A stretch of DNA of 64,000 nucleotides from Escherichia coli (GTDB taxonomy: Bacteria > Pseudomonadota > Gammaproteobacteria > Enterobacterales > Enterobacteriaceae), in NCBI RefSeq assembly GCF_051903065.1, contig NZ_CP178438.1; one strand, 5' to 3'. Below the pieces are notes generated by a model. That model ran no database searches and was not told the origin of the DNA. It worked only from the letters and a program-made list of their open reading frames with translations. Below are positions 11,536 to 54,063 of the stretch, in pieces. Made by a program: the position numbers and the translations under genes. Every line of letters starts with the position of its first letter. Position 1 is the stretch's first letter.

Positions 11536-12789
11536 ATGCTTGAACAAATGGGCATTGCCGCGAAGCAAGCCTCGTATAAATTAGCGCAACTCTCCAGCCG
11601 CGAAAAAAATCGTGTGCTGGAAAAAATCGCCGATGAACTGGAAGCACAAAGCGAAATCATCCTCAACGCTAACGCCCAGGATGTTGCTGACGCGCGTGCC
11701 AATGGCCTTAGCGAAGCGATGCTTGACCGTCTGGCACTGACGCCCGCACGGCTGAAAGGCATTGCCGACGATGTACGTCAGGTGTGCAACCTCGCCGACC
11801 CGGTGGGGCAGGTAATCGATGGCGGCGTACTGGACAGCGGCCTGCGTCTTGAGCGTCGTCGCGTACCGCTGGGGGTTATTGGCGTGATTTATGAAGCGCG
11901 CCCGAACGTGACGGTTGATGTCGCTTCGCTGTGCCTGAAAACCGGTAATGCGGTGATCCTGCGTGGTGGCAAAGAAACCTGTCGCACTAACGCGGCAACG
12001 GTGGCGGTGATTCAGGACGCCCTGAAATCCTGTGGCTTACCGGCTGGTGCCGTGCAGGCGATTGATAATCCTGACCGTGCGTTGGTCAGTGAAATGCTGC
12101 GTATGGATAAATACATCGACATGCTGATCCCGCGCGGCGGGGCTGGTTTGCATAAACTGTGCCGCGAACAGTCGACGATCCCGGTGATCACAGGTGGTAT
12201 AGGCGTATGCCATATTTACGTTGATGAAAGTGCAGAGATCGCTGAAGCATTAAAAGTGATCGTCAACGCGAAAACTCAGCGTCCGAGCACATGTAATACG
12301 GTAGAAACGTTGCTGGTGAATAAAAACATCGCCGATAGCTTCCTGCCCGCATTAAGCAAACAAATGGCGGAAAGCGGCGTGACATTACACGCAGATGCAG
12401 CTGCGCTGACACAGTTGCAGGCAGGCCCCGCGAAGGTGGTGGCGGTTAAAGCCGAAGAGTATGACGATGAGTTTCTGTCATTAGATTTGAACGTCAGAAT
12501 CGTCAGCGATCTTGACGATGCCATCGCCCATATTCGTGAACACGGCACACAACACTCCGATGCGATCCTGACCCGCGATATGCGCAACGCCCAGCGTTTT
12601 GTTAACGAAGTGGATTCGTCCGCTGTTTACGTTAACGCCTCTACGCGTTTTACCGACGGCGGCCAGTTTGGACTGGGTGCGGAAGTGGCGGTAAGCACAC
12701 AAAAACTCCACGCGCGTGGCCCAATGGGGCTGGAAGCACTGACCACTTACAAGTGGATCGGCATTGGTGATTACACCATTCGTGCGTAA
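11536..12789 (+). CDS. proA: gamma-glutamyl phosphate reductase
   Basis: 417 aa, [37 protein letters not shown]. Confidence 0.95.
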
Positions 12790-12902
12790 ATAAAATCGGG
12801 TGATGCAAAAGTAGCCATTTGATTCACAAGGCCATTGACGCATCGCCCGGTTAGTTTTAACCTTGTCCACCGTGATTCACGTTCGTGAACATGTCCTTTC
12901 AG

Positions 12903-12979
12903 GGCCGATATAGCTCAGTTGGTAGAGCAGCGCATTCGTAATGCGAAGGTCGTAGGTTCGACTCCTATTATCGGCACCA
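12903..12979 (+). tRNA. thrW: tRNA-Thr (CGU anticodon), prophage attachment site
   Basis: GCCGATATAGCTCAGTTGGTAGAGCAGCGCATTCGTAATGCGAAGG...TCGGCACCA cloverleaf ending in CCA, immediately followed by an integrase gene. Confidence 0.85.
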
Positions 12980-12993
12980 TTTAAATCAATAAG

Positions 12994-14157
12994 TTACACA
13001 TCATTAGTACCTTCCTTATTTTTTGACTGGGACAAATTTGGGACCGATGGGTTCAGGATCGAGTCTATTTGCCGTGCGTGTTCGGTAAGGTGATTAGGTG
13101 CAAGGTGAGCATATCGACGAACCATTTCGATAGACTCCCAGCCTCCCATTTCCTGTAACACTGACAACGGGACTCCGGCTTGAACTAGCCAACTTGCCCA
13201 GGTGTGTCTCAAGTCGTGAAATCTGAAATCATCAATACCAGCCCGTCTCAGCGCCGCTTTCCAGGCTGTGTTTGCGTCATACCGCATCTTCCTTACTGTT
13301 GGCGCTTTCGTTCCGTCTGGTTTGGTACAGCTTTCCTTGTACACAAATACCCAACGGTGATGATTCCCGATTTGTTTTTTCAAAACGCGACATGCAGTAT
13401 CATTCAGCGCAACGCCAATTGCGCGGTTTGATTTACTCTCTTCCGGGTTTATCCATGCCACCCGGCGCTGCATGTCTATTTGTTGCCATTCAAGGTTGAT
13501 GATGTTCGAGCGTCTTAAGCCTGTTGCCAGTGCAAATTCAACAACAGACTTTAATGGCTCCGGACATTCATCAATCAGCCTTTGTGCTTCATGGGGCTCC
13601 AGCCAGCGGATCCGTTTATTCTTTGGTTGAGGCACTTTAATAATTGGTGCCTTATCCAGCATTTTCCATTCACGCTCTGCGGCTCTTAGTAGGGCCTTTA
13701 TAAATGAAAGATGCGTAGCCTTCGTTGCAACGGACGCTGGTTTTGGCGTGTATTCTGGAACAGGTTTCCCTTTTTTTCTGCATGCTTCTGCCCTGAGTCT
13801 CCAGTTTTCCTCATGACGCCGGTTCGTCATTTTCTGCATTGCTGAATAAATTTTTGATTCAGTAATGTCTCTTAGTTGCATTCCTGCGAAATGTTGAAGC
13901 CAGAATCCGATCCGGCTTTTGTCATCGTCCAGTGATTTTTTATGTGCTTTCTCTTCAAGCCACCTGACACACGCTTCCTCGAACGTTATATCAGGTATTT
14001 CACCAAGTTTGCTGACCCGCCATGCTTCAGCCTTTAGCTTGTCATGGAGTTCTGTCGCCTGCCTTTTGTCCTTTGTTCCAAGAGACTGTTTAAATCTTTT
14101 ACCGTTCGGCAATGTGAAACTGGCGTACCATATTTCACCTCTGCGGAAGAGTGACAT
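12994..14157 (-). CDS. int: tyrosine integrase, P22 Int-like
   Basis: 387 aa, [31 protein letters not shown]..., catalytic [15 protein letters not shown]...VRRYAHL; adjacent to thrW. Confidence 0.95.
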
Positions 14158-24151: not shown

Positions 24152-24502
24152 TTGATGCGTGATATGTATGAAGTATTGGACCGCTGGGGAGCATGGGCTG
24201 CAGCAGAAAATAGTGGTGTGGACTGGCAGCCGATAGCGGCTGGTTTCAAGGGACTTTTACCACACGGTAAAAAGTCACGTCTCCAGTGTGATGATGATGA
24301 AGGCATCATGATAGATAGTTGTGTGGCTAGGTTGCGTAAATATAAGCCGGAAGAGTATGAGCTGATAATTGCTCACTTTGTTATCGGTATCTCATTACGC
24401 ACTATTGCGAAGAAGAGAAAATGCTCTGATGGGACTATAAGAAAAAAGTTGCAAGCTGCATTGGGATTTATTGATGCAGTTATATATATAATACATGGGT
24501 AA
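24152..24502 (+). CDS. Q: antitermination protein Q
   Basis: 116 aa, position upstream of late promoter and lysis genes; Q-family C-terminus. Confidence 0.7.
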   Translation: MMRDMYEVLDRWGAWAAAENSGVDWQPIAAGFKGLLPHGKKSRLQCDDDEGIMIDSCVARLRKYKPEEYELIIAHFVIGISLRTIAKKRKCSDGTIRKKLQAALGFIDAVIYIIHG

Positions 24503-24510
24503 TTTATTAG

Positions 24511-24529
24511 ACGGCCATATTGGCCGTCA
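24511..24529. terminator. bidirectional hairpin between Q and cargo operon
   Basis: Perfect palindrome GACGGCCA-TAT-TGGCCGTC. Confidence 0.55.
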
Positions 24530-25714
24530 GCTAAATAAATATGTAATAGCATAAGGCGTAAGTAAAAAGTAGAACCTAAATGTAAGATATAAGCCACATA
24601 AAACTATAATTCCTAATGAGGCAAAAACAACTTTCTGAACAAGCAATCTTGTGGTTAAACTATCAAATGTATCCTTTATATCTTCGTAAATAGCCTTGAA
24701 GTTATATTCTGCTTGTTGTTTTTTATGATTTAACTCATCATTTATTGCTGTTAAAGTTTGCCATTGATTAAATAGAACAAATAGAATCATAATAGTGAAG
24801 AACAATGCACCCAACACTACAGCTGTATTTATTAATGCTTGACTATCCCAACCATTAGCCTGCTTCATTTGAGTCGCAACGATAATTGTTGCGACGGGGA
24901 TACCTAATATCTGATTTTGTATGTCACTGAATACTTTATGTATTTTTCCCATCTCTTCTATTTTGGCTACTCGTAACTGATCCAGTATTTTCTCGTAAGA
25001 AAAACCAGAAACGAATACTTTGTATCCTTTTTGATAACTTTCATAAAGTTGTCCTAAATCCCTTAACATGAAGGAAAAAGAGGTTTCTTTAGTTTTAGAT
25101 TCACATGATGATTTTATGCTACTTGCTAAAATAGTAAGTTTTTGATCTTTATGCGTATCTTCTGCAAAGTTTGCGATCAAATTATGAATCAGATCTCCAT
25201 TAACATTCATAAGATCATCGCTAGAATAATTTACTGGAATTTTTAGTACGTTGGATTCGACGAATACCAATTCAAAATTTGTTTCATCTAAATAAGCAGA
25301 ACAATCTTTGAATAAAGTAATTAAGCTCAAAACATCTCTGTACTTGGATATAATAGCAGGCGACTTTTTATCCCTGTTGTGATAATTAAGTTCGATTATA
25401 AAGAAGTTACTGGCTTCCTTTATCCTATTTTTAGGATTTTTTAAATACTCATTAAAAGAGAAATGTAGCTGCCCCAATCGTAATTTGGGGGGGGTTATAT
25501 GTAAGGTTATAGTTTGGCCTAACTCAATGTTGCCAGATTCAAGGGTGATGCCAAAATCATGGGGATTCTCTGTGATATCGTTGATGATGTCACAGAGCTC
25601 CTCGTTTGAAAGAATGAGTGATGCTTCAGATAGGGTACCTGCAAATGTAGCGGCCTTGTAAATAGTCACTAAGTCTTTGAAGGTTCTCTGATTGTTACTG
25701 CTCATCCTCTTCAC
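24527..25714 (-). CDS. membrane protein with two C-terminal TM helices (candidate effector)
   Basis: 395 aa; hydrophobic helices ALINTAVVLGALFFTIMILFVLF and VVFASLGIIVLCGLYLTFRFYFLL; AT-rich by eye; start overlaps upstream gene stop. Confidence 0.7.
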   Translation of the reverse strand: MKRMSSNNQRTFKDLVTIYKAATFAGTLSEASLILSNEELCDIINDITENPHDFGITLESGNIELGQTITLHITPPKLRLGQLHFSFNEYLKNPKNRIKEASNFFIIELNYHNRDKKSPAIISKYRDVLSLITLFKDCSAYLDETNFELVFVESNVLKIPVNYSSDDLMNVNGDLIHNLIANFAEDTHKDQKLTILASSIKSSCESKTKETSFSFMLRDLGQLYESYQKGYKVFVSGFSYEKILDQLRVAKIEEMGKIHKVFSDIQNQILGIPVATIIVATQMKQANGWDSQALINTAVVLGALFFTIMILFVLFNQWQTLTAINDELNHKKQQAEYNFKAIYEDIKDTFDSLTTRLLVQKVVFASLGIIVLCGLYLTFRFYFLLTPYAITYLFS

Positions 25715-26729
25715 CTAATTCTGATAAAATCTCTGATCTTAGCGTATCCGGAATCTCGGTAAGTATCAATTTATCGTTTTCTGAATCATAAAGAACGCTG
25801 CCATCATGCAAGGCCGCACGCTCGAATTTCAGAGACCAATGTTTGGACTTTCCTTTGAAACTAACAAGCCCACGTATAACGTTGCCATCAGGCACGAACC
25901 CATCAGAGAACTCCAGATCGTCATTGGTTAACTTTTCAACTAACAACTCAGGAGCAGTTGGCCATATCTCGTTTGCAAAAACTTGAGTGTCGAAAGCTTC
26001 ACCAGAACGATTTAAATTTTTTAATTTTTCATGAGCCTTATTTAGGAACTCTTCACGTGCCTCTGGTTCAAAACCTCTTTCAGTAGCAAATTCTAAAAGT
26101 GCATTCCGTAATTTTGTTGTTTCTTGTTTGGCAATTAGAATATCGTTACAACCTAAAAACTTTTTGAAATAACCTGCTACTGAATTTTGCCCCTTTAGAA
26201 AGCTAATATATCTCTCTTTGCCATTCTGGCGCCCAGTTAAGTCAATTCGTCCCGCTACTCGAAGTTTAGCAATGTCTAGATATTCACTTTCTTGAATTTC
26301 AAAATCGTGGACTGAAGAGCCAACTGCTGATGTTAGGATTGCAACCATCAAATAATGATTTCCATTTACCTCATTATGGGCAATTATTACATAACCACCA
26401 GTAGACATTGATTCATCATCGGCTCTGGCTTTTAAATGATTGATCATTCGGATACTAGTATCATAAAAACTATGTGTTTTATTTACGAAATAATCATCAA
26501 CGATATTACCCATAGGGTAACTATCGCGGTCATCTTCAAATTTACCATATCCTTTACCTGCTCTCCCAGAGTACCTTTCAGTAAGTGCGTTAGAGAGGTC
26601 TTTTGATGCTTGCTGAACAGGTTTTTCTGAAGGACAAGGAATAATGGTGGCTAACCCCTGTTGTTCCTTGTTCATAATGTGAACAATAAACTTATGAGTG
26701 ATATTAGTGGGGGTCGCTGATGCAGTCAT
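25695..26729 (-). CDS. NdpA/YejK-like (NA37 family) nucleoid-associated-type protein
   Basis: 344 aa; collinear motifs with E. coli YejK as recalled (YLMVAILTSAVGS, DIAKLRVAGRIDLT, RYISFLKGQ); AGGA RBS upstream of ATG. Confidence 0.65.
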   Translation of the reverse strand: MTASATPTNITHKFIVHIMNKEQQGLATIIPCPSEKPVQQASKDLSNALTERYSGRAGKGYGKFEDDRDSYPMGNIVDDYFVNKTHSFYDTSIRMINHLKARADDESMSTGGYVIIAHNEVNGNHYLMVAILTSAVGSSVHDFEIQESEYLDIAKLRVAGRIDLTGRQNGKERYISFLKGQNSVAGYFKKFLGCNDILIAKQETTKLRNALLEFATERGFEPEAREEFLNKAHEKLKNLNRSGEAFDTQVFANEIWPTAPELLVEKLTNDDLEFSDGFVPDGNVIRGLVSFKGKSKHWSLKFERAALHDGSVLYDSENDKLILTEIPDTLRSEILSELGEEDEQ

Positions 26730-26845
26730 AACAACATCCTTTTAATGGTTTTGAACAATTGGTGTTGATAATACTTCAAAAAATACTAATGCGTACGCAA
26801 AAAATACAGTACTCTGTTAAGAGTGGTTACTTCGCCACACAGCTT

Positions 26846-26875
26846 AAACCCGCCGTCGAGCGGGTTTTGTCGTTT
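26846..26875 (+). terminator. tR'-like terminator of the late leader transcript
   Basis: AAACCCGC-CGTCGA-GCGGGTTT hairpin followed by a T-rich tract, upstream of the holin gene. Confidence 0.55.
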
Positions 26876-27019
26876 CTGGGCTTTGGTATTCGTTGGGCTT
26901 GGTCTATCTAGCTCTTATCCATTGGCTCGGCTTCTTTTACGTTTCCGCTTCTGATTTGCGGTTCGTGGTACTCCCTCAATTTGCACCTCTTGTATCGGCG
27001 AGGTGAGAGATAACTACAA

Positions 27020-27346
27020 ATGCCTCATAACCCAAATACCTGGCTGGAGTTGGTCCAGAGCTGGTGGCGTGGAGACACACCGCTGGGCGCAGTGATTATG
27101 TCGATTGTTATGGCTGGTTTGCGCATTGCCTATTTTGGCGGTGGTGGTGGCTGGAAGCGAAAAACACTCGAAATTCTACTCTGTGGCGCTCTGACGCTGA
27201 CTTTTGCATCCGCTCTTGAGTATGTCGGATGGCCTAAATCGCTTTCTGTTGCCATTGGTGGTGGGGTGGGGCTGATCGGTGTCGATGCTATTCGTGGGGC
27301 TGCAATGAGAGTAATCGGTAATAAGTTTGGTGGCTCTAAGGAGTAA
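27020..27346 (+). CDS. holin
   Basis: 108 aa small membrane protein with TM segments, directly upstream of endolysin. Confidence 0.8.
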   Translation: MPHNPNTWLELVQSWWRGDTPLGAVIMSIVMAGLRIAYFGGGGGWKRKTLEILLCGALTLTFASALEYVGWPKSLSVAIGGGVGLIGVDAIRGAAMRVIGNKFGGSKE

Positions 27347-27349
27347 TTT

Positions 27350-27826
27350 ATGCAGGTACTAAATTCCCAGCGTAAAGCTTTCCTCGATATGGTGGCATGG
27401 TCAGAAGGAACGGATAACGGGCGACAACCGACACGTAACCACGGTTATGATATTATTGTTGGTGGTGAACTATTCACTGATTACTCCGATCACCCTCGCA
27501 AACTTGTCACGCTAAACCCCAAACTCAAATCAACAGCTGCAGGCCGTTATCAACTTCTTTCACGCTGGTGGGATGCTTACCGCAAGCAGCTTGGGCTGAA
27601 AGACTTCTCTCCAAAAAGCCAGGATGCTGTGGCATTGCAGCAGATTAAAGAGCGTGGCGCTTTACCGATGATTGATCGCGGCGATATTCGTCAGGCTATC
27701 GATCGTTGCAGCAATATCTGGGCTTCACTGCCGGGCGCTGGTTACGGTCAATATGAACATAAAATAGGTGACCTGATTGCCCGATTCAAAGAGGCTGGCG
27801 GGGTGGTAAATGAAGTTGAGCTATAA
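27350..27826 (+). CDS. R: endolysin (lambda R-type lytic transglycosylase)
   Basis: 158 aa, NSQRKAFLDMVAWSEGTDNGRQPTRNHGYDIIVGGELFTDYSDHPRKLV close to lambda R. Confidence 0.92.
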   Translation: MQVLNSQRKAFLDMVAWSEGTDNGRQPTRNHGYDIIVGGELFTDYSDHPRKLVTLNPKLKSTAAGRYQLLSRWWDAYRKQLGLKDFSPKSQDAVALQQIKERGALPMIDRGDIRQAIDRCSNIWASLPGAGYGQYEHKIGDLIARFKEAGGVVNEVEL

Positions 27827-28202
27827 GCTGGTTATCGCAGCATTCTTCTCTACTGTCATCGGTTCTTTCATCTGGTCTGCTAACCACTACTACAGCAAAT
27901 ATCAGCACGAAAAGAAACGTGCTGATGAGGCTGTACAAAATGCTGAATCCGCAACCGCTATTACCAATAATGTCCTGCAATCACTGCAAATCGTCAATAC
28001 AGTTCTGGAGGCTAACCAGCATGCAAAACAGCAGATCGCACTGGAGTCACAGAGAACCCAGGAAGATATCAAAGTGGCTGTTGAGAATGATGATTGCGCT
28101 TCCCGTCTTGTTCCTGCTCGTGCAACTGAGCGGCTGCGCCGGTACGCGGACAATTTACGTACCAGTTCCGGCGGTACCACTACCGGCGAACCTGACCGCT
28201 GA
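27810..28202 (+). CDS. Rz: i-spanin Rz
   Basis: 130 aa, N-terminal TM then coiled-coil; overlaps the endolysin end. Confidence 0.8.
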   Translation: MKLSYKLVIAAFFSTVIGSFIWSANHYYSKYQHEKKRADEAVQNAESATAITNNVLQSLQIVNTVLEANQHAKQQIALESQRTQEDIKVAVENDDCASRLVPARATERLRRYADNLRTSSGGTTTGEPDR

Positions 28203-28344
28203 AACCCCACAGCCAGCTATTCCTGATCCGCTGACTTACAGAGATAGTCTGGATTTAAACGTGAGCCTGCTGTCAGTGCTGGCTGCCTGTAATAGGGATA
28301 AGGCTGATATTCGTAAAATTGAAGCAGAGAAGAGTGAGCCATGA
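28087..28344 (+). CDS. Rz1: o-spanin Rz1 (lipoprotein, overlapped architecture)
   Basis: Starts within Rz in the +1 frame; signal peptide with lipobox LSGC; Pro-rich. Confidence 0.65.
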   Translation: MMIALPVLFLLVQLSGCAGTRTIYVPVPAVPLPANLTAETPQPAIPDPLTYRDSLDLNVSLLSVLAACNRDKADIRKIEAEKSEP

Positions 28345-28538
28345 AGCAGTAAAGTGGAAAGATCGCAGCAAGAAGTGCCTGTTCAGAATTAATGAAGATG
28401 CCTCAAATACCTAAAATAGCGAGTAGCCAGATGCACGTCAACTACGAGTGTGTGGCCAGCATAACGTTGTATAAACTAAGTGATAGCAGAGTTCAATATA
28501 CGTATACTGAGAGAACTATTTCTATTTGAGAACTGAAA

Positions 28539-29132
28539 ATGACGGACTATACTTTTTTTTACTGGATAGAGATGCTTCTTAAAGAAGGCAATGTTTTATT
28601 TATTGTTCTTGCTTGTTTGATTGTCTTTTTTACTTTAAAAAAAGAAATAATAATGGTTTTAGGTCGTCTTAATACAGTTAAGCTAGGTGACTATGAGATT
28701 AAATTTAAAAAAGAAATGTTTGAAATAGAATCTAAAAGTATAGAGGTTATTAAAAATTTACCTGGAACAAATCCTGTCCTGCCGACACAACTCATTGAGA
28801 ATTTCAATATTTTTGAGAGTCTTGCTAGTACTCAGCCTAATGTTGCTGTACTTTCAGCTTGGCGCGAATTGGAGTTAACCGCTATAACGCTTGCATCTAA
28901 AAAGGGGGTTGAGATCAACGGGACATCTTTAGGGCGGGCTTCAGGTATCGCTGCCTTGAAAAATGTCCAATCTGCAAACAAAATTTCTAGTGACATTGTT
29001 AAGCTTTATGAAAAAACAGGAGAGTCTATTAAGCCTATATCCCAAGGAAAGCTCTTATGTACTCAGGAAGATGCTTTGGCATTCTGTAAGAATGCAAAAA
29101 GACTTAGCAATTATTTAACATCCATATTTTAG
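28539..29132 (+). CDS. hypothetical membrane-anchored moron protein
   Basis: 197 aa, N-terminal TM helix (VLFIVLACLIVFFTL), AT-rich by eye. Confidence 0.55.
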   Translation: MTDYTFFYWIEMLLKEGNVLFIVLACLIVFFTLKKEIIMVLGRLNTVKLGDYEIKFKKEMFEIESKSIEVIKNLPGTNPVLPTQLIENFNIFESLASTQPNVAVLSAWRELELTAITLASKKGVEINGTSLGRASGIAALKNVQSANKISSDIVKLYEKTGESIKPISQGKLLCTQEDALAFCKNAKRLSNYLTSIF

Positions 29133-29174
29133 TATGTATCCATAGAGCATCCATTATTATTGGAGTAGTCGTTA

Positions 29175-29201
29175 CAGCAGGCATTCACTGAGTGCCTGCT
29201 G
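29175..29201. terminator. bidirectional hairpin between convergent moron genes
   Basis: CAGCAGGCA-loop-TGCCTGCTG inverted repeat. Confidence 0.5.
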
Positions 29202-29208
29202 CTGAACT

Positions 29209-29421
29209 CTAATAGCAAGATGGAGAATCTGCATTAAATTTTTGAGAGAGATTACTTATTTCATTCACTCCCTTATGATTAAGTAATAGCCTAATATTTT
29301 CTGGAGCCTTGAATATAAATGGGCCTTTTAGATCCTCGATGATTCCTCCTGCGACGCAGATCAAATGCTTGAAATCAACATCTTCAATTGTGGGCTTGGA
29401 GTCCAGATTATCGCTTGTCAT
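29209..29421 (-). CDS. small hypothetical protein
   Basis: 70 aa ORF convergent with the preceding moron; AT-rich. Confidence 0.4.
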   Translation of the reverse strand: MTSDNLDSKPTIEDVDFKHLICVAGGIIEDLKGPFIFKAPENIRLLLNHKGVNEISNLSQKFNADSPSCY

Positions 29422-29550
29422 TTAAAAACATCCTTTCTTGCCATTAGCAGCATTGAGCATGTTATGGAATCTGTAATTTAGGATGCTGGTACTACCAGTA
29501 CTTTTTTTGTTTCATTTTGTGAATCACCTCATTTACGAGGGGAGCCTATC

Positions 29551-47833: not shown

Positions 47834-48435
47834 TGGATAATGCTGTATTAAATAGCGAACATATTGCTACGAAGGCTGGAAATGTTACTGTTTATAACTT
47901 TGACGGTGAAACGCGAGAGTATATTTCCCCATCTATTGAATATATTGCCGTTGGTGTCGGTATTCCGGCATATTCATGTTTAGATGCTCCTGCCACACGT
48001 AAAGATGGTTATGCAATTTGCCGTTCTGCAGATTTTAACTCATGGGAATATGTGCCAGACCATCGCGGTGAAACGGTCTATAGCACTGAAACAGGAGAAT
48101 CAAAAGAAATCACAGCTCCGGGTGATTACCCTGAAAATACAACCACTATCTCCCCATTAACGCCATACGATAAATGGGATGGTGAGAAATGGGTGACCGA
48201 TACTGAAGCACAGCATAGCGCCGCAGTAGACGCGGCAGAAGCACAGCGCCAGTCACTGATTAATGCTGCAATGGCTTCCATTAGTCTGATTCAGCTGAAA
48301 TTACAGGCCGGACGGAAACTGACGCAGGCAGAAACAACCCGGCTTAACGCTGTGCTGGATTACATTGACGCGGTGATGGCAACAGATACCAGCACCGCGC
48401 CGAATGTCATCTGGCCTGAACTGCCGGAGGCGTAG
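47833..48435 (+). CDS. tail fibre assembly protein
   Basis: 200 aa, conserved C-terminus ...IDAVMATDTSTAPNVIWPELPEA. Confidence 0.8.
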   Translation: MDNAVLNSEHIATKAGNVTVYNFDGETREYISPSIEYIAVGVGIPAYSCLDAPATRKDGYAICRSADFNSWEYVPDHRGETVYSTETGESKEITAPGDYPENTTTISPLTPYDKWDGEKWVTDTEAQHSAAVDAAEAQRQSLINAAMASISLIQLKLQAGRKLTQAETTRLNAVLDYIDAVMATDTSTAPNVIWPELPEA

Positions 48436-48850
48436 GCCATTCAATATCTGGAGCACTGGAGGGATCAACCAGTTCCAGTGCGTCCAGATAATCCAGCCAT
48501 AAATTATATTGTTCCAGCTCGTCACCTTTCAGACGACCAATAGCAGCTTTGCCAGGCCACTGATGGGTATTGATGTAGGTATTGGCTTCTGAAACCAAAG
48601 ATATTTTTTTCATTTCAGCCGTCAATACCTCATCCTCTTTTGAAGGTGGTGGGGAATTAATCCATACTGGCCGTCCTGAACTGTCAGCGCCAATTTCTTT
48701 CCCTTCTGGATGCAGCCCAAGAAATTGCTCATATATTTCTCTGGTAATTTCAATAACATCATCAGGAAGCGTTCCCGCATCCTCATATTCTGGAAATAAT
48801 TCTTGCAGATAAAAACTTTTACTTCCGGGTGAAAAGAATACTGAGTTCAT
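48407..48850 (-). CDS. tail fibre assembly protein (alternative, inverted orientation)
   Basis: 147 aa with analogous C-terminus ...DPSSAPDIEWPTPP. Confidence 0.8.
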   Translation of the reverse strand: MNSVFFSPGSKSFYLQELFPEYEDAGTLPDDVIEITREIYEQFLGLHPEGKEIGADSSGRPVWINSPPPSKEDEVLTAEMKKISLVSEANTYINTHQWPGKAAIGRLKGDELEQYNLWLDYLDALELVDPSSAPDIEWPTPPAVQAR

Positions 48851-48852
48851 TC

Positions 48853-49347
48853 TTACCGTCCAATGATTAACGCTGATACGCTGGTATCTGAAGGAAAGGC
48901 TGCATTCAGTGGTTTGTCGACTTTGAACACAATCGTATTATTCCCCCTGACAGCGGCAAAAGAACAAGCCGCCGTCGCGTATGAACCTGTAATATTACTG
49001 GATACACCACCATAAGCTGTTGTTGATACCAGAGGGATAACGCCCAGCACCTTATTAGGAAATACAAAGGGCAATGTGGCTGTGGCAATATAAGACTTAT
49101 TAGAGCCTGTAATGGCATAAGCATTATCAGTCATTCCATTCATCGCCACTGGACCGCTTATACTTACAGTAACCATCTGAATGATTAGCCCGTCAGGTTG
49201 ACGAATCACAAAATTTCCATTGCCACCAGTAACCGTCCAGAAAGACATATCAGGGATTTGGTTTTCCCCGTTGCCCACATTCCGTTTTGCCGCTTCTCCC
49301 AAACCAACGTTTATGAAAATGCAGAAATAACGAGCAAATGGCATCAT
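48853..49347 (-). CDS. alternative tail fibre C-terminal segment (silent orientation)
   Basis: 164 aa Gly/Ser/Thr-rich fibre-tip-like ORF lacking its own N-terminal constant part. Confidence 0.6.
   Translation of the reverse strand: MMPFARYFCIFINVGLGEAAKRNVGNGENQIPDMSFWTVTGGNGNFVIRQPDGLIIQMVTVSISGPVAMNGMTDNAYAITGSNKSYIATATLPFVFPNKVLGVIPLVSTTAYGGVSSNITGSYATAACSFAAVRGNNTIVFKVDKPLNAAFPSDTSVSALIIGR
49295..49319. repeat. inversion crossover site (gix/pix-like), right
   Basis: CCCAAACCAACGTTT, reverse complement of the left-site core. Confidence 0.65.
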
Positions 49348-49373
49348 TCCTGCTTTTGTCAGGGAGATCTACC

Positions 49374-49928
49374 ATGCTTATTGGCTATGTACGTGTGTCA
49401 ACAAATGACCAGAACACAGATCTACAACGTAATGCGCTGAACTGTGCAGGATGCGAGCTGATTTTTGAAGACAAGATAAGCGGTACAAAGTCCGAAAGGC
49501 CGGGACTGAAAAAACTGCTCAGGACATTATCGGCAGGTGACACTCTGGTTGTCTGGAAGCTGGATCGGCTAGGGCGTAGTATGCGGCATCTGGTCATTCT
49601 GGTTGAGGAGTTGCGCGAACGTGGCGTTAATTTTCGCAGCCTGACGGATGCTATTGATACCAGCACACCGATGGGGCGTTTTTTCTTTCATGTGATGGGT
49701 GCCCTGGCTGAAATGGAACGAGAACTGATTGTTGAACGAACAAAAGCTGGACTGGAAGCTGCTCGCGCACAGGGACGAATTGGTGGACGTCGTCCCAAAC
49801 TTACACCAGAACAATGGGCGCAGGCCGGGCGATTAATTGCATCAGGCGTTCCTCGCCAGAAGGTGGCGATCATCTATGATGTTGGTATATCGACACTGTA
49901 TAAGAAGTTTCCGGTCGGAGATAAATGA
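49374..49928 (+). CDS. serine DNA invertase (Gin/Pin/Hin family)
   Basis: MLIGYVRVSTNDQNTDLQRNAL... with C-terminal HTH; adjacent to the invertible segment. Confidence 0.92.
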   Translation: MLIGYVRVSTNDQNTDLQRNALNCAGCELIFEDKISGTKSERPGLKKLLRTLSAGDTLVVWKLDRLGRSMRHLVILVEELRERGVNFRSLTDAIDTSTPMGRFFFHVMGALAEMERELIVERTKAGLEAARAQGRIGGRRPKLTPEQWAQAGRLIASGVPRQKVAIIYDVGISTLYKKFPVGDK

Positions 49929-49985: not shown

Positions 49986-50855
<870 letters not shown>

Positions 50856-51470: not shown

Positions 51471-53306
51471 GTGAAACGACTACAATCATTAAAAGAAGCA
51501 AAAACAAAACCAGACTTGGCTAAGCTATTAGGAATCAAACCTTCAGCGTTAACATACTGCCTATATGTATTAAAACCTGAAAATCAATACACACAGTTTA
51601 AGATACCAAAAAAAAATGGCGGCGAACGGATAATAAGTGCACCTAACGGAATATTAAAGACGATACAGTCATCCTTATCAAGACTGCTTCTAGATTGCTT
51701 AGACGAAATAGTTTGCATTAAGTTTCCAGACTCAGAGTTAGCAAGGCAGAAAGCAAAAAACTCAAAAATATTAAAGTTAAAATGTTCCAACTCAGAAATC
51801 AAACAACCCTCACTGTCTCATGGATTTGAAAGAAAGCGTTCAATTATTACAAATGCAATGATGCACTTGGGGAAAAAATATGTTTTTAATATAGACTTGG
51901 ATAATTTTTTCGGCAGTTTTAACTTTGGTAGAGTCCGAGGTTTTTTCATAAAAAATAGAAACTTTGCACTCGATCCGGAAATCGCAACTGTAATTGCTAA
52001 AATTGCGTGCTACAACAATGAACTACCCCAAGGCAGCCCATGCTCCCCAGTAATCACTAATCTAATCACTCACTCGTTAGACATTAAACTGGCAGCGATT
52101 GCATCAAGAAACTCATCCACTTTTACAAGATATGCTGATGATATTACATTCTCTACGAGGAAGGGGGAGTTTCCTTCTGCTATAGCAAAAAATCAAAATG
52201 GTAAATATATCGTTAGTAAGAAAATTAGGGGCGAGATAACTCGCTCAGGTTTTATAATTAATGATGGGAAGACAAGAAATCAGTATAAAGACTCGAGGCA
52301 AGATGTAACAGGCTTAGTGGTTAATAAAAAGCCAAACACGAAAAAAGAATATTGGAGGCTTGTGCGTGCGCAATGTGACCATTTATTTAAACATGGTGAG
52401 TTCTTAGAGGTGATTGACGGCAAGGAAATAAAGGGGAATGTTAATAGCCTTGCAGGCAAACTTAACTTCATAGACCAAGTTGACCACTATAATAGATTGC
52501 GTCAAGGCGAAAAATTAAATCCAAAATATCACTTAAAAAAAGATGCCAATAAAAATGGCCATGCCAAAAAAAGGCGTTACTTACATAGTTCTAGAGAAAA
52601 AACGTTTAGTGAGTTTCTCTTCTATCGTTTATTTTATGGCAATGAATTACCAACAATTCTTACGGAAGGTAAAACTGACAATATTTATCTGAAGGCAGCA
52701 ATACATAAGTTAGCCTCATCATTCCCTAATTTGGCGGTCGCTGAAAGTCCAGGGCTCTCTTATAAGCCACGGACTAAATTTGTTAACTACAATGAGCGGA
52801 CAAAATATTTACTTGAACTTTATGGTGGTGCTGATTATTTAAAGGATTTTGTTATTCATTATAAACAACACTTTAATCGTTATAAGGCTCCCAAACCATC
52901 TAATCCAGTAATTATACTTGTTGATAATGATAGCGGACCAAAAGATCTGATTAATTACGTTAGTAAAGTTGATAATATTGGTATTTTCCCCACAGGTGTT
53001 CCAGATATCCGCGCCTCTGAGTTTGTACATATTTTTTGTAATCTTTATTTAGTGCTTACCCCTCAAGTTAAGGGATATACAGGAACTGATATAGAGCATT
53101 TTTTTAAAGATACAGATCGACTTAGACCACATAAAGGTAAGTTTTTCAATACAGTCTCTAAGCGTGATCATGATAATGATTTGAGCAAGGAATCTTTCGC
53201 AACTCATATTGTTCATGCCCACAAGCATGAAATTGATTTTAGTGGATTTACAAGCCTGTTAGAACGGTTAGTAAAAGTCATAAATCACTTTGACACTGTT
53301 AAGTAA
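51471..53306 (+). CDS. retron reverse transcriptase fused to a C-terminal Toprim domain
   Basis: RT motifs (NGGERIISAP, LPQGSPCSP, YADD in TRYADDITFS); C-terminal Toprim-like TEGKTD and VDNDSGP; 611 aa. Confidence 0.85.
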   Translation: MKRLQSLKEAKTKPDLAKLLGIKPSALTYCLYVLKPENQYTQFKIPKKNGGERIISAPNGILKTIQSSLSRLLLDCLDEIVCIKFPDSELARQKAKNSKILKLKCSNSEIKQPSLSHGFERKRSIITNAMMHLGKKYVFNIDLDNFFGSFNFGRVRGFFIKNRNFALDPEIATVIAKIACYNNELPQGSPCSPVITNLITHSLDIKLAAIASRNSSTFTRYADDITFSTRKGEFPSAIAKNQNGKYIVSKKIRGEITRSGFIINDGKTRNQYKDSRQDVTGLVVNKKPNTKKEYWRLVRAQCDHLFKHGEFLEVIDGKEIKGNVNSLAGKLNFIDQVDHYNRLRQGEKLNPKYHLKKDANKNGHAKKRRYLHSSREKTFSEFLFYRLFYGNELPTILTEGKTDNIYLKAAIHKLASSFPNLAVAESPGLSYKPRTKFVNYNERTKYLLELYGGADYLKDFVIHYKQHFNRYKAPKPSNPVIILVDNDSGPKDLINYVSKVDNIGIFPTGVPDIRASEFVHIFCNLYLVLTPQVKGYTGTDIEHFFKDTDRLRPHKGKFFNTVSKRDHDNDLSKESFATHIVHAHKHEIDFSGFTSLLERLVKVINHFDTVK

Positions 53307-53365: not shown

Positions 53366-53869
53366 TTATTGATAGTGTTTTATGTTCAGATAATGCCCGA
53401 TGACTTTGTCATGCAGCTCCACCGATTTTGAGAACGACAGCGACTTCCGTCCCAGCCGTGCCAGGTGCTGCCTCAGATTCAGGTTATGCCGCTCAATTCG
53501 CTGCGTATATCGCTTGCTGATTACGTGCAGCTTTCCCTTCAGGCGGGATTCATACAGCGGCCAGCCATCCGTCATCCATATCACCACGTCAAAGGGTGAC
53601 AGCAGGCTCATAAGACGCCCCAGCGTCGCCATAGTGCGTTCACCGAATACGTGCGCAACAACCGTCTTCCGGAGCCTGTCATACGCGTAAAACAGCCAGC
53701 GCTGGCGCGATTTAGCCCCGACATAGCCCCACTGTTCGTCCATTTCCGCGCAGACGATGACGTCACTGCCCGGCTGTATGCGCGAGGTTACCGACTGCGG
53801 CCTGAGTTTTTTAAGTGACGTAAAATCGTGTTGAGGCCAACGCCCATAATGCGGGCTGTTGCCCGGCAT
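53366..53869 (-). CDS. insB: IS1 transposase InsB
   Basis: 167 aa ORF within IS1. Confidence 0.9.
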
Positions 53870-54063
53870 CCAACGCCATTCATGGCCATATCAATGATTT
53901 TCTGGTGCGTACCGGGTTGAGAAGCGGTGTAAGTGAACTGCAGTTGCCATGTTTTACGGCAGTGAGAGCAGAGATAGCGCTGATGTCCGGCGGTGCTTTT
54001 GCCGTTACGCACCACCCCGTCAGTAGCTGAACAGGAGGGACAGCTGATAGAAACAGAAGCCAC
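53788..54063 (-). CDS. insA: IS1 protein InsA
   Basis: 91 aa [42 protein letters not shown]. Confidence 0.9.

Follow-up and report, generated by a model that had tools for sequence, protein, structure and literature searches.

What is the role of two AT-rich genes that lie antisense to the late operon of an Escherichia coli prophage? A first-pass annotation of a 64,000-nucleotide stretch of contig NZ_CP178438.1 (hereafter the window) had read the pair as an abortive-infection or superinfection-exclusion module, and as a candidate for an undescribed system built around an NA37-family protein. The host element is a lambdoid prophage at tRNA-Thr, in which the pair occupies a cassette flanked by the Q antiterminator on one side and by the late leader and holin on the other.

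An exchangeable cassette between Q and the holin gene

The borders of the cassette were defined by comparing the window with L033, L031 and L026 in blastn and by aligning the right-hand junction. DNA homology to a sister prophage that carries DS-1 (discovered system 1, described below) ends at 24476 and restarts at 26780, delimiting an exchangeable cargo cassette (24477..26779) with a G+C content of 0.354, compared with 0.506 for the prophage. The operon itself ranges from 0.30 to 0.42 and its flanks from 0.50 to 0.58, in agreement with the AT-richness relative to neighbouring phage genes reported initially.

On the left, the Q-family antiterminator gene (24155..24502, plus strand; RefSeq WP_001205465.1) is convergent with the second gene of the operon, gene B. 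Between them lies a GC-rich hairpin with an 8-bp stem, GACGGCCA-TAT-TGGCCGTC (24510..24528), which overlaps the gene B stop codon and folds as RNA at -19.3 kcal/mol (z-score -5.1). As no U-tract follows the hairpin in the sequence, we put it forward as a putative, likely bidirectional, terminator. On the right, the cassette-specific region upstream of gene A (26730..26779, minus strand) holds a Shine-Dalgarno motif, AAGGA (26737-26741), and a -10-like TATTAT (26768-26773) that was spotted by eye; any -35 element would lie in shared leader DNA, outside the cassette. A consensus promoter scan returned no sigma-70 site upstream of gene A, and the promoter is for this reason a candidate. The conserved late leader follows (26780..27019, plus strand); it contains a terminator-like hairpin (26846-26867) and precedes the holin gene (27020-27346). 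This leader is common to prophages with different cargo at this point, and 486 genomes hold at least 80% of the leader plus holin. The placement first described, between Q and the late-leader terminator and against the late operon, is thus correct. An Rfam search of the entire window found tRNA-Thr only, with no known RNA element inside the cassette.

The same Q-holin slot carries different genes in related elements. One sister prophage, 92-98% identical apart from the cassette, carries DS-1 in this slot, also antisense and with sharp swap boundaries. Other sister prophages have a KAP NTPase there (PADLOC PDC-S20 match, E 1e-176), and in DLP12 the slot holds the nmpC porin gene. These last two are likewise accessory prophage genes, antisense and next to the same late leader, but their proteins and functions are unrelated to those of the pair studied here.

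The two genes and their products

The operon consists of gene A (25695..26729, minus strand), which starts with ATG and encodes a YejK-like nucleoid-associated protein (NAP) of 344 aa (RefSeq WP_048228897.1), the presumed sensor, and gene B (24527..25705, minus strand), which encodes the presumed effector, a protein of 392 aa annotated by RefSeq as 'phage-related membrane protein' (WP_000097747.1). Two overlapping minus-strand reading frames (25695..26729 and 24527..25714) had been recognised at the outset and are present, with an overlap put at about 20 nt. That length corresponds to an alternative GTG start of gene B at 25714, which would give 395 aa (24527..25714, minus strand). RefSeq and the alignment of homologues both prefer the ATG at 25705, so that, as read from the sequence, the end of gene A overlaps the beginning of gene B by 11 nt (25695..25705, minus strand) and not by 20. 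Overlap of this kind suggests translational coupling of the two genes. Both are real genes and chance open reading frames are excluded. For gene B alone, a word-index search gave 369 homologues, and the full search gave 1,112 clusters when grouped at 50% identity. Two small plus-strand ORFs (25485-25661 and 26436-26606) were set aside as probable chance ORFs because they lie wholly inside these two conserved genes.

The resemblance of the first product to NdpA/YejK, initially suggested by motif matches, holds over its full length: residues 15-330 align to positions 1-324/325 of the Pfam NA37 model (PF04245) with E 1.7e-68, and residues 92-334 align to a solved YejK chain (PDB 9be2_A, E 1.7e-19). 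The protein also belongs to the phage family phrog_3767 (E 4.6e-80). Judged by its sequence, gene A is nevertheless a YejK paralogue distinct from the chromosomal housekeeping yejK, because it scores 165 bits against the NCBIfam YejK equivalog (NF001557), under the curated cut-off of 341. It shares the full-length NA37 domain with YejK/NdpA, the housekeeping 37-kDa NAP, and differs from it in being carried on AT-rich mobile cargo and in its obligate pairing with a membrane protein.

The soluble region and two hydrophobic C-terminal helices previously described for gene B were recovered by prediction. Hydrophobic segments lie at 294-312 (hydropathy peak 2.72) and 354-372 (peak 2.26), and an AF2 model (pLDDT 82) places long helices at 288-335 and 340-382. 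The protein is therefore predicted to consist of an N-terminal alpha/beta and helical cytoplasmic domain followed by two transmembrane (TM) helices. Pfam assigned no significant family to gene B, a profile built from the gene B family gave no match among PDB sequences, and the best Foldseek hit of the model in PDB had an E of 0.57; the kinase and channel matches in this last search, with E no better than that value, were discarded as noise. By contrast, 262 AFDB50 clusters share the fold, many of the AFDB relatives being named 'phage-related membrane protein', and gene B matches phrog_5023 (E 4.1e-80). Its length and many residues are conserved over Alpha-, Beta- and Gammaproteobacteria, with 49 invariant columns in the alignment. 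The N-domain has a net charge of -5 to -6 and a pI of 5.7-5.8, calculated from sequence, within a family range of 0 to -15.

Relationship to DS-1 and type II PANGU

DS-1 is a pair of a YejK-domain protein and a membrane protein that protects E. coli (DefensePredictor, PMC13092281; bioRxiv 2025, Science 2026). Its E. coli components are WP_000355468.1 and WP_000150292.1, represented by the NCBIfam models NF053868 and NF053869. DS-1 and the A/B pair have the same plan, a two-gene operon in which an NA37/YejK gene comes first and a gene for a membrane protein of about 400 aa comes second, abutting or overlapping it, and both components are homologous between the two. They also share the antisense Q-holin slot in one prophage family, and the DS-1 cassette has a G+C content of 0.35. 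Gene A matches DS-1A by BLASTP at 25% identity across 197 aa (E 3e-10) and the NCBIfam model DS1_1_antiphage ('nucleoid-associated anti-phage protein') at 56.4 bits (E 2.4e-15). Gene B matches DS1_2_antiphage ('anti-phage protein') at 70.3 bits (E 1.6e-19), and its family aligns with DS-1B by hhalign at 94.4% probability over 278 columns. The distance is nevertheless considerable: gene A is about 25% identical to its counterpart and gene B 20-28%, with NCBIfam scores far under the equivalog cut-offs of 330 and 315, respectively. DS-1A (391 aa) has an N-terminal CxxC...CxxC zinc ribbon (residues 1-41) which is absent from gene A, whose 344 aa contain no CxxC motif and whose NA37 domain begins at residue 15. 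By the same hydropathy measure, the hydrophobic segments of DS-1B are weaker than those of gene B. DS-1 is established experimentally, whereas the A/B pair is known from its sequence.

A second comparison is provided by type II PANGU, described in a preprint of April 2026 (Li et al., bioRxiv 10.64898/2026.04.06.716658), in which the NAP sensor Pag2A leaves the degraded nucleoid and engages the transmembrane effector Pag2B, leading to abortive infection. Type II PANGU-Ecu required both genes and had an abortive-infection phenotype; upon T4 infection Pag2A-GFP departed from the nucleoid, and the Pag2B N-domain bound Pag2A with a KD of 19 nM. Mutations by which T4 escapes PANGU affect EndoII, a phage nuclease that attacks host DNA. 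Activation of Pag2B by Pag2A, and the action of Pag2B on the membrane, are unresolved according to the preprint itself. By its described architecture this system is like the A/B pair, a bicistronic operon encoding first a YejK-like NAP and then an effector made up of a soluble N-domain and a C-terminal TM domain, and its effector family is likewise widespread and horizontally spread over Proteobacteria. Pag2B is described as having a DNA-mimic ('DMK') domain dense in acidic residues. The gene B N-domain is just mildly acidic, and such a feature is consequently not evident from its sequence. The preprint ties PANGU to defence islands, with no mention of prophage slots.

These comparisons change one part of the initial reading. 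The first-pass annotation had recognised no named defence system with an NA37-family protein at its core, yet DS-1 and type II PANGU are both of this kind, and the NCBIfam models for the two DS-1 proteins match A and B; the proposal of an undescribed system is therefore not supported. The first-pass annotation had allowed for a match to a characterised system, and one was found, in the form of distant homology. On sequence grounds, A/B is a divergent relative of DS-1 within an already published kind of system. PADLOC v2.0.0 (2023), whose library predates DS-1 and PANGU, assigned neither of the two proteins to a family at E up to 1.

The pairing of A and B is strict. An NA37 gene lies directly upstream of the gene B relative, on the same strand, in 22/22 species loci with a full-length gene B, and in all 22 the two genes overlap or are separated by at most 2 nt; co-occurrence, which had been named as a check, is thus borne out. 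The pair is also found in the Sinorhizobium phage phi2LM21. Pairwise identities of A and B are correlated (r = 0.92), which shows joint inheritance; as shared ancestry alone yields the same value, the correlation is no proof of physical interaction. Members of the clade occur commonly in lambdoid prophages and in Mu-like ones, among Alpha-, Beta- and Gammaproteobacteria. Distant copies are located in defence islands outside prophages, where their neighbours encode a type III restriction enzyme, HsdM, a PtuA-like ATPase and a caspase-TPR protein. In E. coli, the cassette is present in 15 of 5,426 complete genomes and DS-1 in 106 of the same set.

Probable anti-phage defence and its alternatives

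We consider it probable that the cassette is a prophage-borne two-gene anti-phage system of the DS-1 or type II PANGU kind, composed of a NAP sensor and a membrane effector. The defence module proposed initially is in this respect well supported, even though it is not undescribed, because both genes are homologous to a validated system, occupy the identical slot, co-occur strictly and have defence-island neighbours. The exact gene B protein is also listed in DefensePredictor Table S10 as a predicted defence gene, with a log-odds of 11.97. By analogy with the published relatives, the operon would be transcribed in the lysogen against a silent late operon, and the gene A protein would be bound to the chromosome. 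Degradation of host DNA by an infecting lytic phage would release the gene A protein, which could then bind the cytoplasmic N-terminal domain of the gene B protein. The C-terminal helices of gene B would then damage the inner membrane, so that the infected cell no longer supports phage growth (abortive infection).

Several observations count against a defence function: the identity of 20-28% to DS-1, the NCBIfam scores below cut-off, the PADLOC v2 result and the missing zinc ribbon. To these may be added the mildly acidic gene B N-domain, the lack of a clear sigma-70 promoter and the preprint status of the PANGU source.

The position of the pair in other phages would fit a different role. In Mu-like prophages of Jeongeupia, Klebsiella and Pectobacterium it is co-oriented with, and directly upstream of, holin and endolysin genes, and for this reason A/B may have a function in the phage cycle. 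The membrane protein could affect lysis timing, or act at the surface or at entry as a superinfection-exclusion factor that blocks DNA injection, and the NA37 protein would regulate it; membership of both proteins in phage families and the name borne by many AFDB relatives of gene B would fit. We regard this as unlikely. In the lambdoid prophages the pair runs antisense to the late operon with the late leader between them, the layout of cargo expressed in the lysogen, and its slot can instead hold a KAP NTPase or the nmpC porin. Moreover, DS-1 still protects when cloned alone, without phage lysis genes (DefensePredictor Table S7, PMC13092281), and the distant copies beside restriction-modification genes are found outside prophages. 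A module without a defence function, in which a YejK paralogue and its membrane partner compact, silence or anchor AT-rich prophage DNA to the membrane, seems improbable, despite the higher score of gene A on the YejK model (165 bits) than on DS1_1 (56), its alignment to the solved YejK chain and the AT-richness of the cassette itself. Gene A is far under the YejK equivalog cut-off, and such a module would leave unexplained the obligate pairing with a TM homologue of a validated defence component; in the PANGU study, operon-encoded NAPs are also commoner near known defence genes than stand-alone ones (8.22% vs 4.20%; 10.64898/2026.04.06.716658).

The cassette is very unlikely to be a passenger, inert or in decay, or an addiction cassette of the toxin-antitoxin type whose sole effect is to stabilise the prophage. 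Its rarity in E. coli could be read in this way, as could the split NA37 gene of the Xenorhabdus copy, the truncated gene B without an NA37 gene in Cupriavidus and the other decayed genes of this prophage (frameshifts, an Rz pseudogene). Both ORFs, however, are intact and at least 98.5% identical in all 15 genomes with the cassette, and protein length and the invariant columns have been kept across three proteobacterial classes. PANGU constructs, single genes included, were non-toxic (10.64898/2026.04.06.716658), a finding that speaks against the relatives acting as classical toxin-antitoxin systems.

If the anti-phage system is active, the pair adds a widespread clade to the NAP-sensor immune systems, with the 1,112 effector clusters as its measure, and such systems would be seen to spread as interchangeable cargo of one defined slot in prophages, lysogens gaining protection from lytic phages. 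No new category is opened, since DS-1 and PANGU already represent this kind of system in the literature, together with a working model. We tentatively raise the possibility that A/B is an allele of the NAP-sensor system that differs in function, with another trigger or phage range, or one that escapes phage counter-measures against DS-1. This suggestion rests on its presence in the slot of DS-1, the identity of about 25%, the absence of the zinc ribbon and the more hydrophobic effector. If it is true, the Q-holin slot would be a swap site of alternative NAP-sensor cassettes under diversifying selection, and the A/B clade would be a large branch of NAP-based immunity. Two very distant alleles, DS-1 and A/B, at one locus offer a natural experiment on sensor-effector specificity and phage range.

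Structure of the operon and its products

The gene pair lies in a lambdoid-type prophage adjoining tRNA-Thr and proA, with an integrase gene at 12995-14113 and a pinE invertase gene at 49374-49928. Across the region searched, E. coli strain 23CRST027 (NZ_AP045789.1) matches the window at 100%. The two minus-strand ORFs described in the first-pass annotation are present: gene A (25695-26729, 344 aa) and gene B (24527-25714; GTG start, 395 aa). For gene B, both the RefSeq annotation and the alignment of homologues prefer an ATG at 25705 (392 aa), so that the genes do overlap, but by 11 nt and not by the 20 nt or so first proposed. The operon is AT-rich, as had been noted, with a G+C content of 0.30-0.42 against 0.50-0.58 in the flanks; the values are 0.354 for the exchangeable segment and 0.506 for the prophage. 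The Q-family antiterminator gene (24155-24502) is convergent with gene B, and between the two gene ends there is a GC-rich hairpin of 8 bp (24510-24528; fold z-score -5.1). Upstream of the pair are a terminator-like hairpin in the late leader (26846-26867) and the holin gene (27020-27346). A promoter scan found no consensus promoter for the pair.

The product of gene A is a full-length member of the NA37 family (Pfam E 1.7e-68) and can be aligned to YejK chain 9be2_A, a solved structure (E 1.7e-19), in agreement with the original NdpA/YejK-like assignment. Against the NCBIfam YejK equivalog model, with a cut-off of 341 bits, it reaches no more than 165 bits, which makes it a paralogue and not the housekeeping yejK. 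It lacks the N-terminal zinc ribbon of DS-1A.

Regarding gene B, no Pfam family was matched, and the protein belongs to phrog_5023, a family of unknown function. In the AF2 model (pLDDT 82), an N-terminal alpha/beta domain (residues ~1-180) is followed by a helical region (186-266) and then by two long helices at the C terminus. Hydrophobic stretches at 294-312 and 354-372 lie inside these helices, which bears out the two hydrophobic C-terminal helices described earlier. The most conserved motif in the homologue alignment, FSDIQNQILGIPVATIIVATQMK, is found immediately ahead of the first TM segment. The N-domain is only mildly acidic (net charge -5 to -6). No solved structure resembling the model was found; in AFDB50 its fold recurs in 262 clusters, with 'phage-related membrane protein' a frequent name among the best matches. 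A full profile search gave 1,112 clusters at 50% identity.

Relationship to DS-1 and type II PANGU

The first-pass annotation knew of no defence system built around an NA37 protein, a statement now out of date, since DS-1 and type II PANGU have been published. DS-1, described in the DefensePredictor work (bioRxiv January 2025; Science April 2026; PMC13092281), pairs an NA37/YejK-domain protein (DS-1A) with a membrane protein (DS-1B). Its -log(EOP) values are 7.6 against Bas1, 2.7 against Bas26, 1.7 against both Bas3 and T3, and 1.0 against T5 (PMC13092281). Sequence and profile comparisons confirmed a distant homology of both window proteins to the two DS-1 components, at low identity. Gene A aligns with DS-1A at 25% identity across 197 aa (E 3e-10) and gene B with DS-1B at 28% across 104 aa (E 4e-7). 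The NCBIfam models NF053868 ('DS1_1 nucleoid-associated anti-phage protein') and NF053869 ('DS1_2 anti-phage protein') match genes A and B with E values of 2.4e-15 and 1.6e-19, respectively, both far under the curated cut-offs. The gene B family profile aligns with DS-1B with an hhalign probability of 94.4% over 278 columns, and a local hmmsearch was concordant. The exact gene B protein (WP_000097747.1) is listed as a 'Predicted novel defense gene' (log-odds 11.97) in DefensePredictor Table S10, an entry that stands there as a prediction.

PANGU operons combine a YejK-like NAP with an effector (Li et al. preprint, bioRxiv 10.64898/2026.04.06.716658). In type II these are the NAP Pag2A and the transmembrane effector Pag2B, which combines an acidic 'DNA-mimic' domain at its N terminus with a TM domain at its C terminus. 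An E. coli type II system reportedly gives 3-4 logs of protection against T4, needs both genes, neither of which is toxic alone, and was read by the authors as abortive infection from growth curves and phage titres at low and high MOI. The effector N-domain binds Pag2A with a KD of 19 nM, and the route by which Pag2A activates Pag2B is unknown according to the authors. T4 escapes type I PANGU through EndoII mutations (all bioRxiv 10.64898/2026.04.06.716658).

Cargo exchange, pairing and genomic neighbourhood

The Q-holin slot is a cargo hotspot, in line with the first-pass view of it as a classic lambdoid cargo site. Three loci have the DS-1 pair in antisense orientation in the interval from the Q antiterminator to the holin of a sister prophage with the same neighbour genes. 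One of these loci (L033) and the window share 92-98% DNA identity outside the cassette, and identity breaks sharply at window positions 24476/24477 and 26779/26780; the right-hand junction is common to a third cargo type. Among 5,426 complete E. coli genomes, the slot holds DS-1 in 106, a KAP-family NTPase (PADLOC candidate PDC-S20, E 1e-176) in 50 and the NA37 pair of the window in 15. It also holds a Clp-fold serine proteinase in one sampled prophage and the nmpC porin in DLP12. A 77-nt late-leader piece with the terminator-like hairpin (26792-26868) is conserved in many E. coli genomes at ~90% identity; it recurs in the DLP12 prophage of K-12, ahead of essD, and also beside unrelated cargo genes. 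This piece probably contains the Q-dependent late promoter and leader and forms the right-hand boundary for cassette exchange.

Gene B relatives were identified at 24 loci in a scan of 100,044 genomes at species level. The homologues co-occur: in 22 of 22 loci with full-length gene B, an NA37 gene immediately precedes it in the same orientation, overlapping it or leaving a gap of at most 2 nt. Two truncated Cupriavidus copies and one weak match do not follow this pattern. The identities of A and of B, taken pairwise, are correlated (r = 0.92). The pair occupies the same antisense Q-holin slot in Citrobacter and is convergent with Q in Erwinia, as in the window. In Mu-like prophages it is co-oriented with the lysis genes, just upstream of them; in Xenorhabdus it follows tail-fibre genes, with the NA37 gene split; and in Sinorhizobium phage phi2LM21 it lies close to an end of the genome record. 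More distant copies adjoin genes for a type III restriction enzyme, hsdM, a PtuA-like ATPase and a caspase-TPR protein. A sister prophage in Citrobacter freundii with the same pair (L026) also has, in its early region, a 408-aa protein with a Colicin domain (12039-13265), an HNH protein and an acetyltransferase, which we read as more accessory cargo.

The window has a second AT-rich cargo island (28345-29550, G+C 0.364). This island, between the spanin and HNH/terminase genes, has a plus-strand ORF of 197 aa (28539-29132, phrog_30030) and a minus-strand ORF of 70 aa (29209-29421, phrog_22590), both of unknown function and without a PADLOC match. It looks like a second exchangeable slot, because sister prophages have at this position Bor, Iss, DUF6236, DUF6979 plus KilA-N, or DUF4145 proteins. 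In the adjacent region (27810-28344), the Rz-like spanin gene (27810-28082) is a truncated pseudogene according to RefSeq, and DNA homology to sister prophages stops within it, at 27824 or 27894. This suggests a recombination joint, which may have damaged the spanin and, with it, prophage lysis. The tail-fibre assembly and tail protein genes at 47854-49928, in opposite orientations and adjoining pinE, are arranged as in an invertible tail-fibre (host-range) segment. Past pinE, a LEM-3-like GIY-YIG protein gene (49986-50759, minus strand), a retron Ec67-family reverse transcriptase/endonuclease gene (51471-53306, plus strand) and a frameshifted IS1 (53366-54062) make up additional cargo of defence type, located at the right end of the prophage or just outside it.

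Function of the pair

The architecture was recognised correctly at first pass, and the pair is a divergent member of the already published DS-1/type II PANGU kind. It is probably a lysogen-expressed anti-phage system of that kind, in which the NA37 protein would sense chromosome integrity and the membrane protein would be the effector. Host DNA is degraded by T3/T7, T5 and T1-like phages. The phage spectrum of DS-1 fits chromosome-integrity sensing. Allele-specific ranges are likely, because T1 and T5 are insensitive to the two PANGU systems of Li et al. (bioRxiv 10.64898/2026.04.06.716658).

The earlier proposal of a defence module agrees with the homology, position, pairing and neighbourhood obtained here; protection itself, like nucleoid release, A-B binding and membrane damage, would be expected by analogy with the relatives. 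Several observations weigh against a simple transfer of the DS-1/PANGU model: the low identity to DS-1, the missing zinc ribbon, the mild acidity of the gene B N-domain, the lack of a consensus promoter in our scan, and the location beside lysis genes in Mu-like prophages. Alternatively, the pair could serve the phage cycle or exclusion, could organise the nucleoid, or could be an inert or addictive passenger, and we consider each of these less likely than the anti-phage reading. What is modestly new is that two very distant NAP-sensor cassettes, and a KAP NTPase, are cleanly exchanged as alleles at one prophage slot, and that the pair's clade is widely spread across lambdoid and Mu-like prophages.
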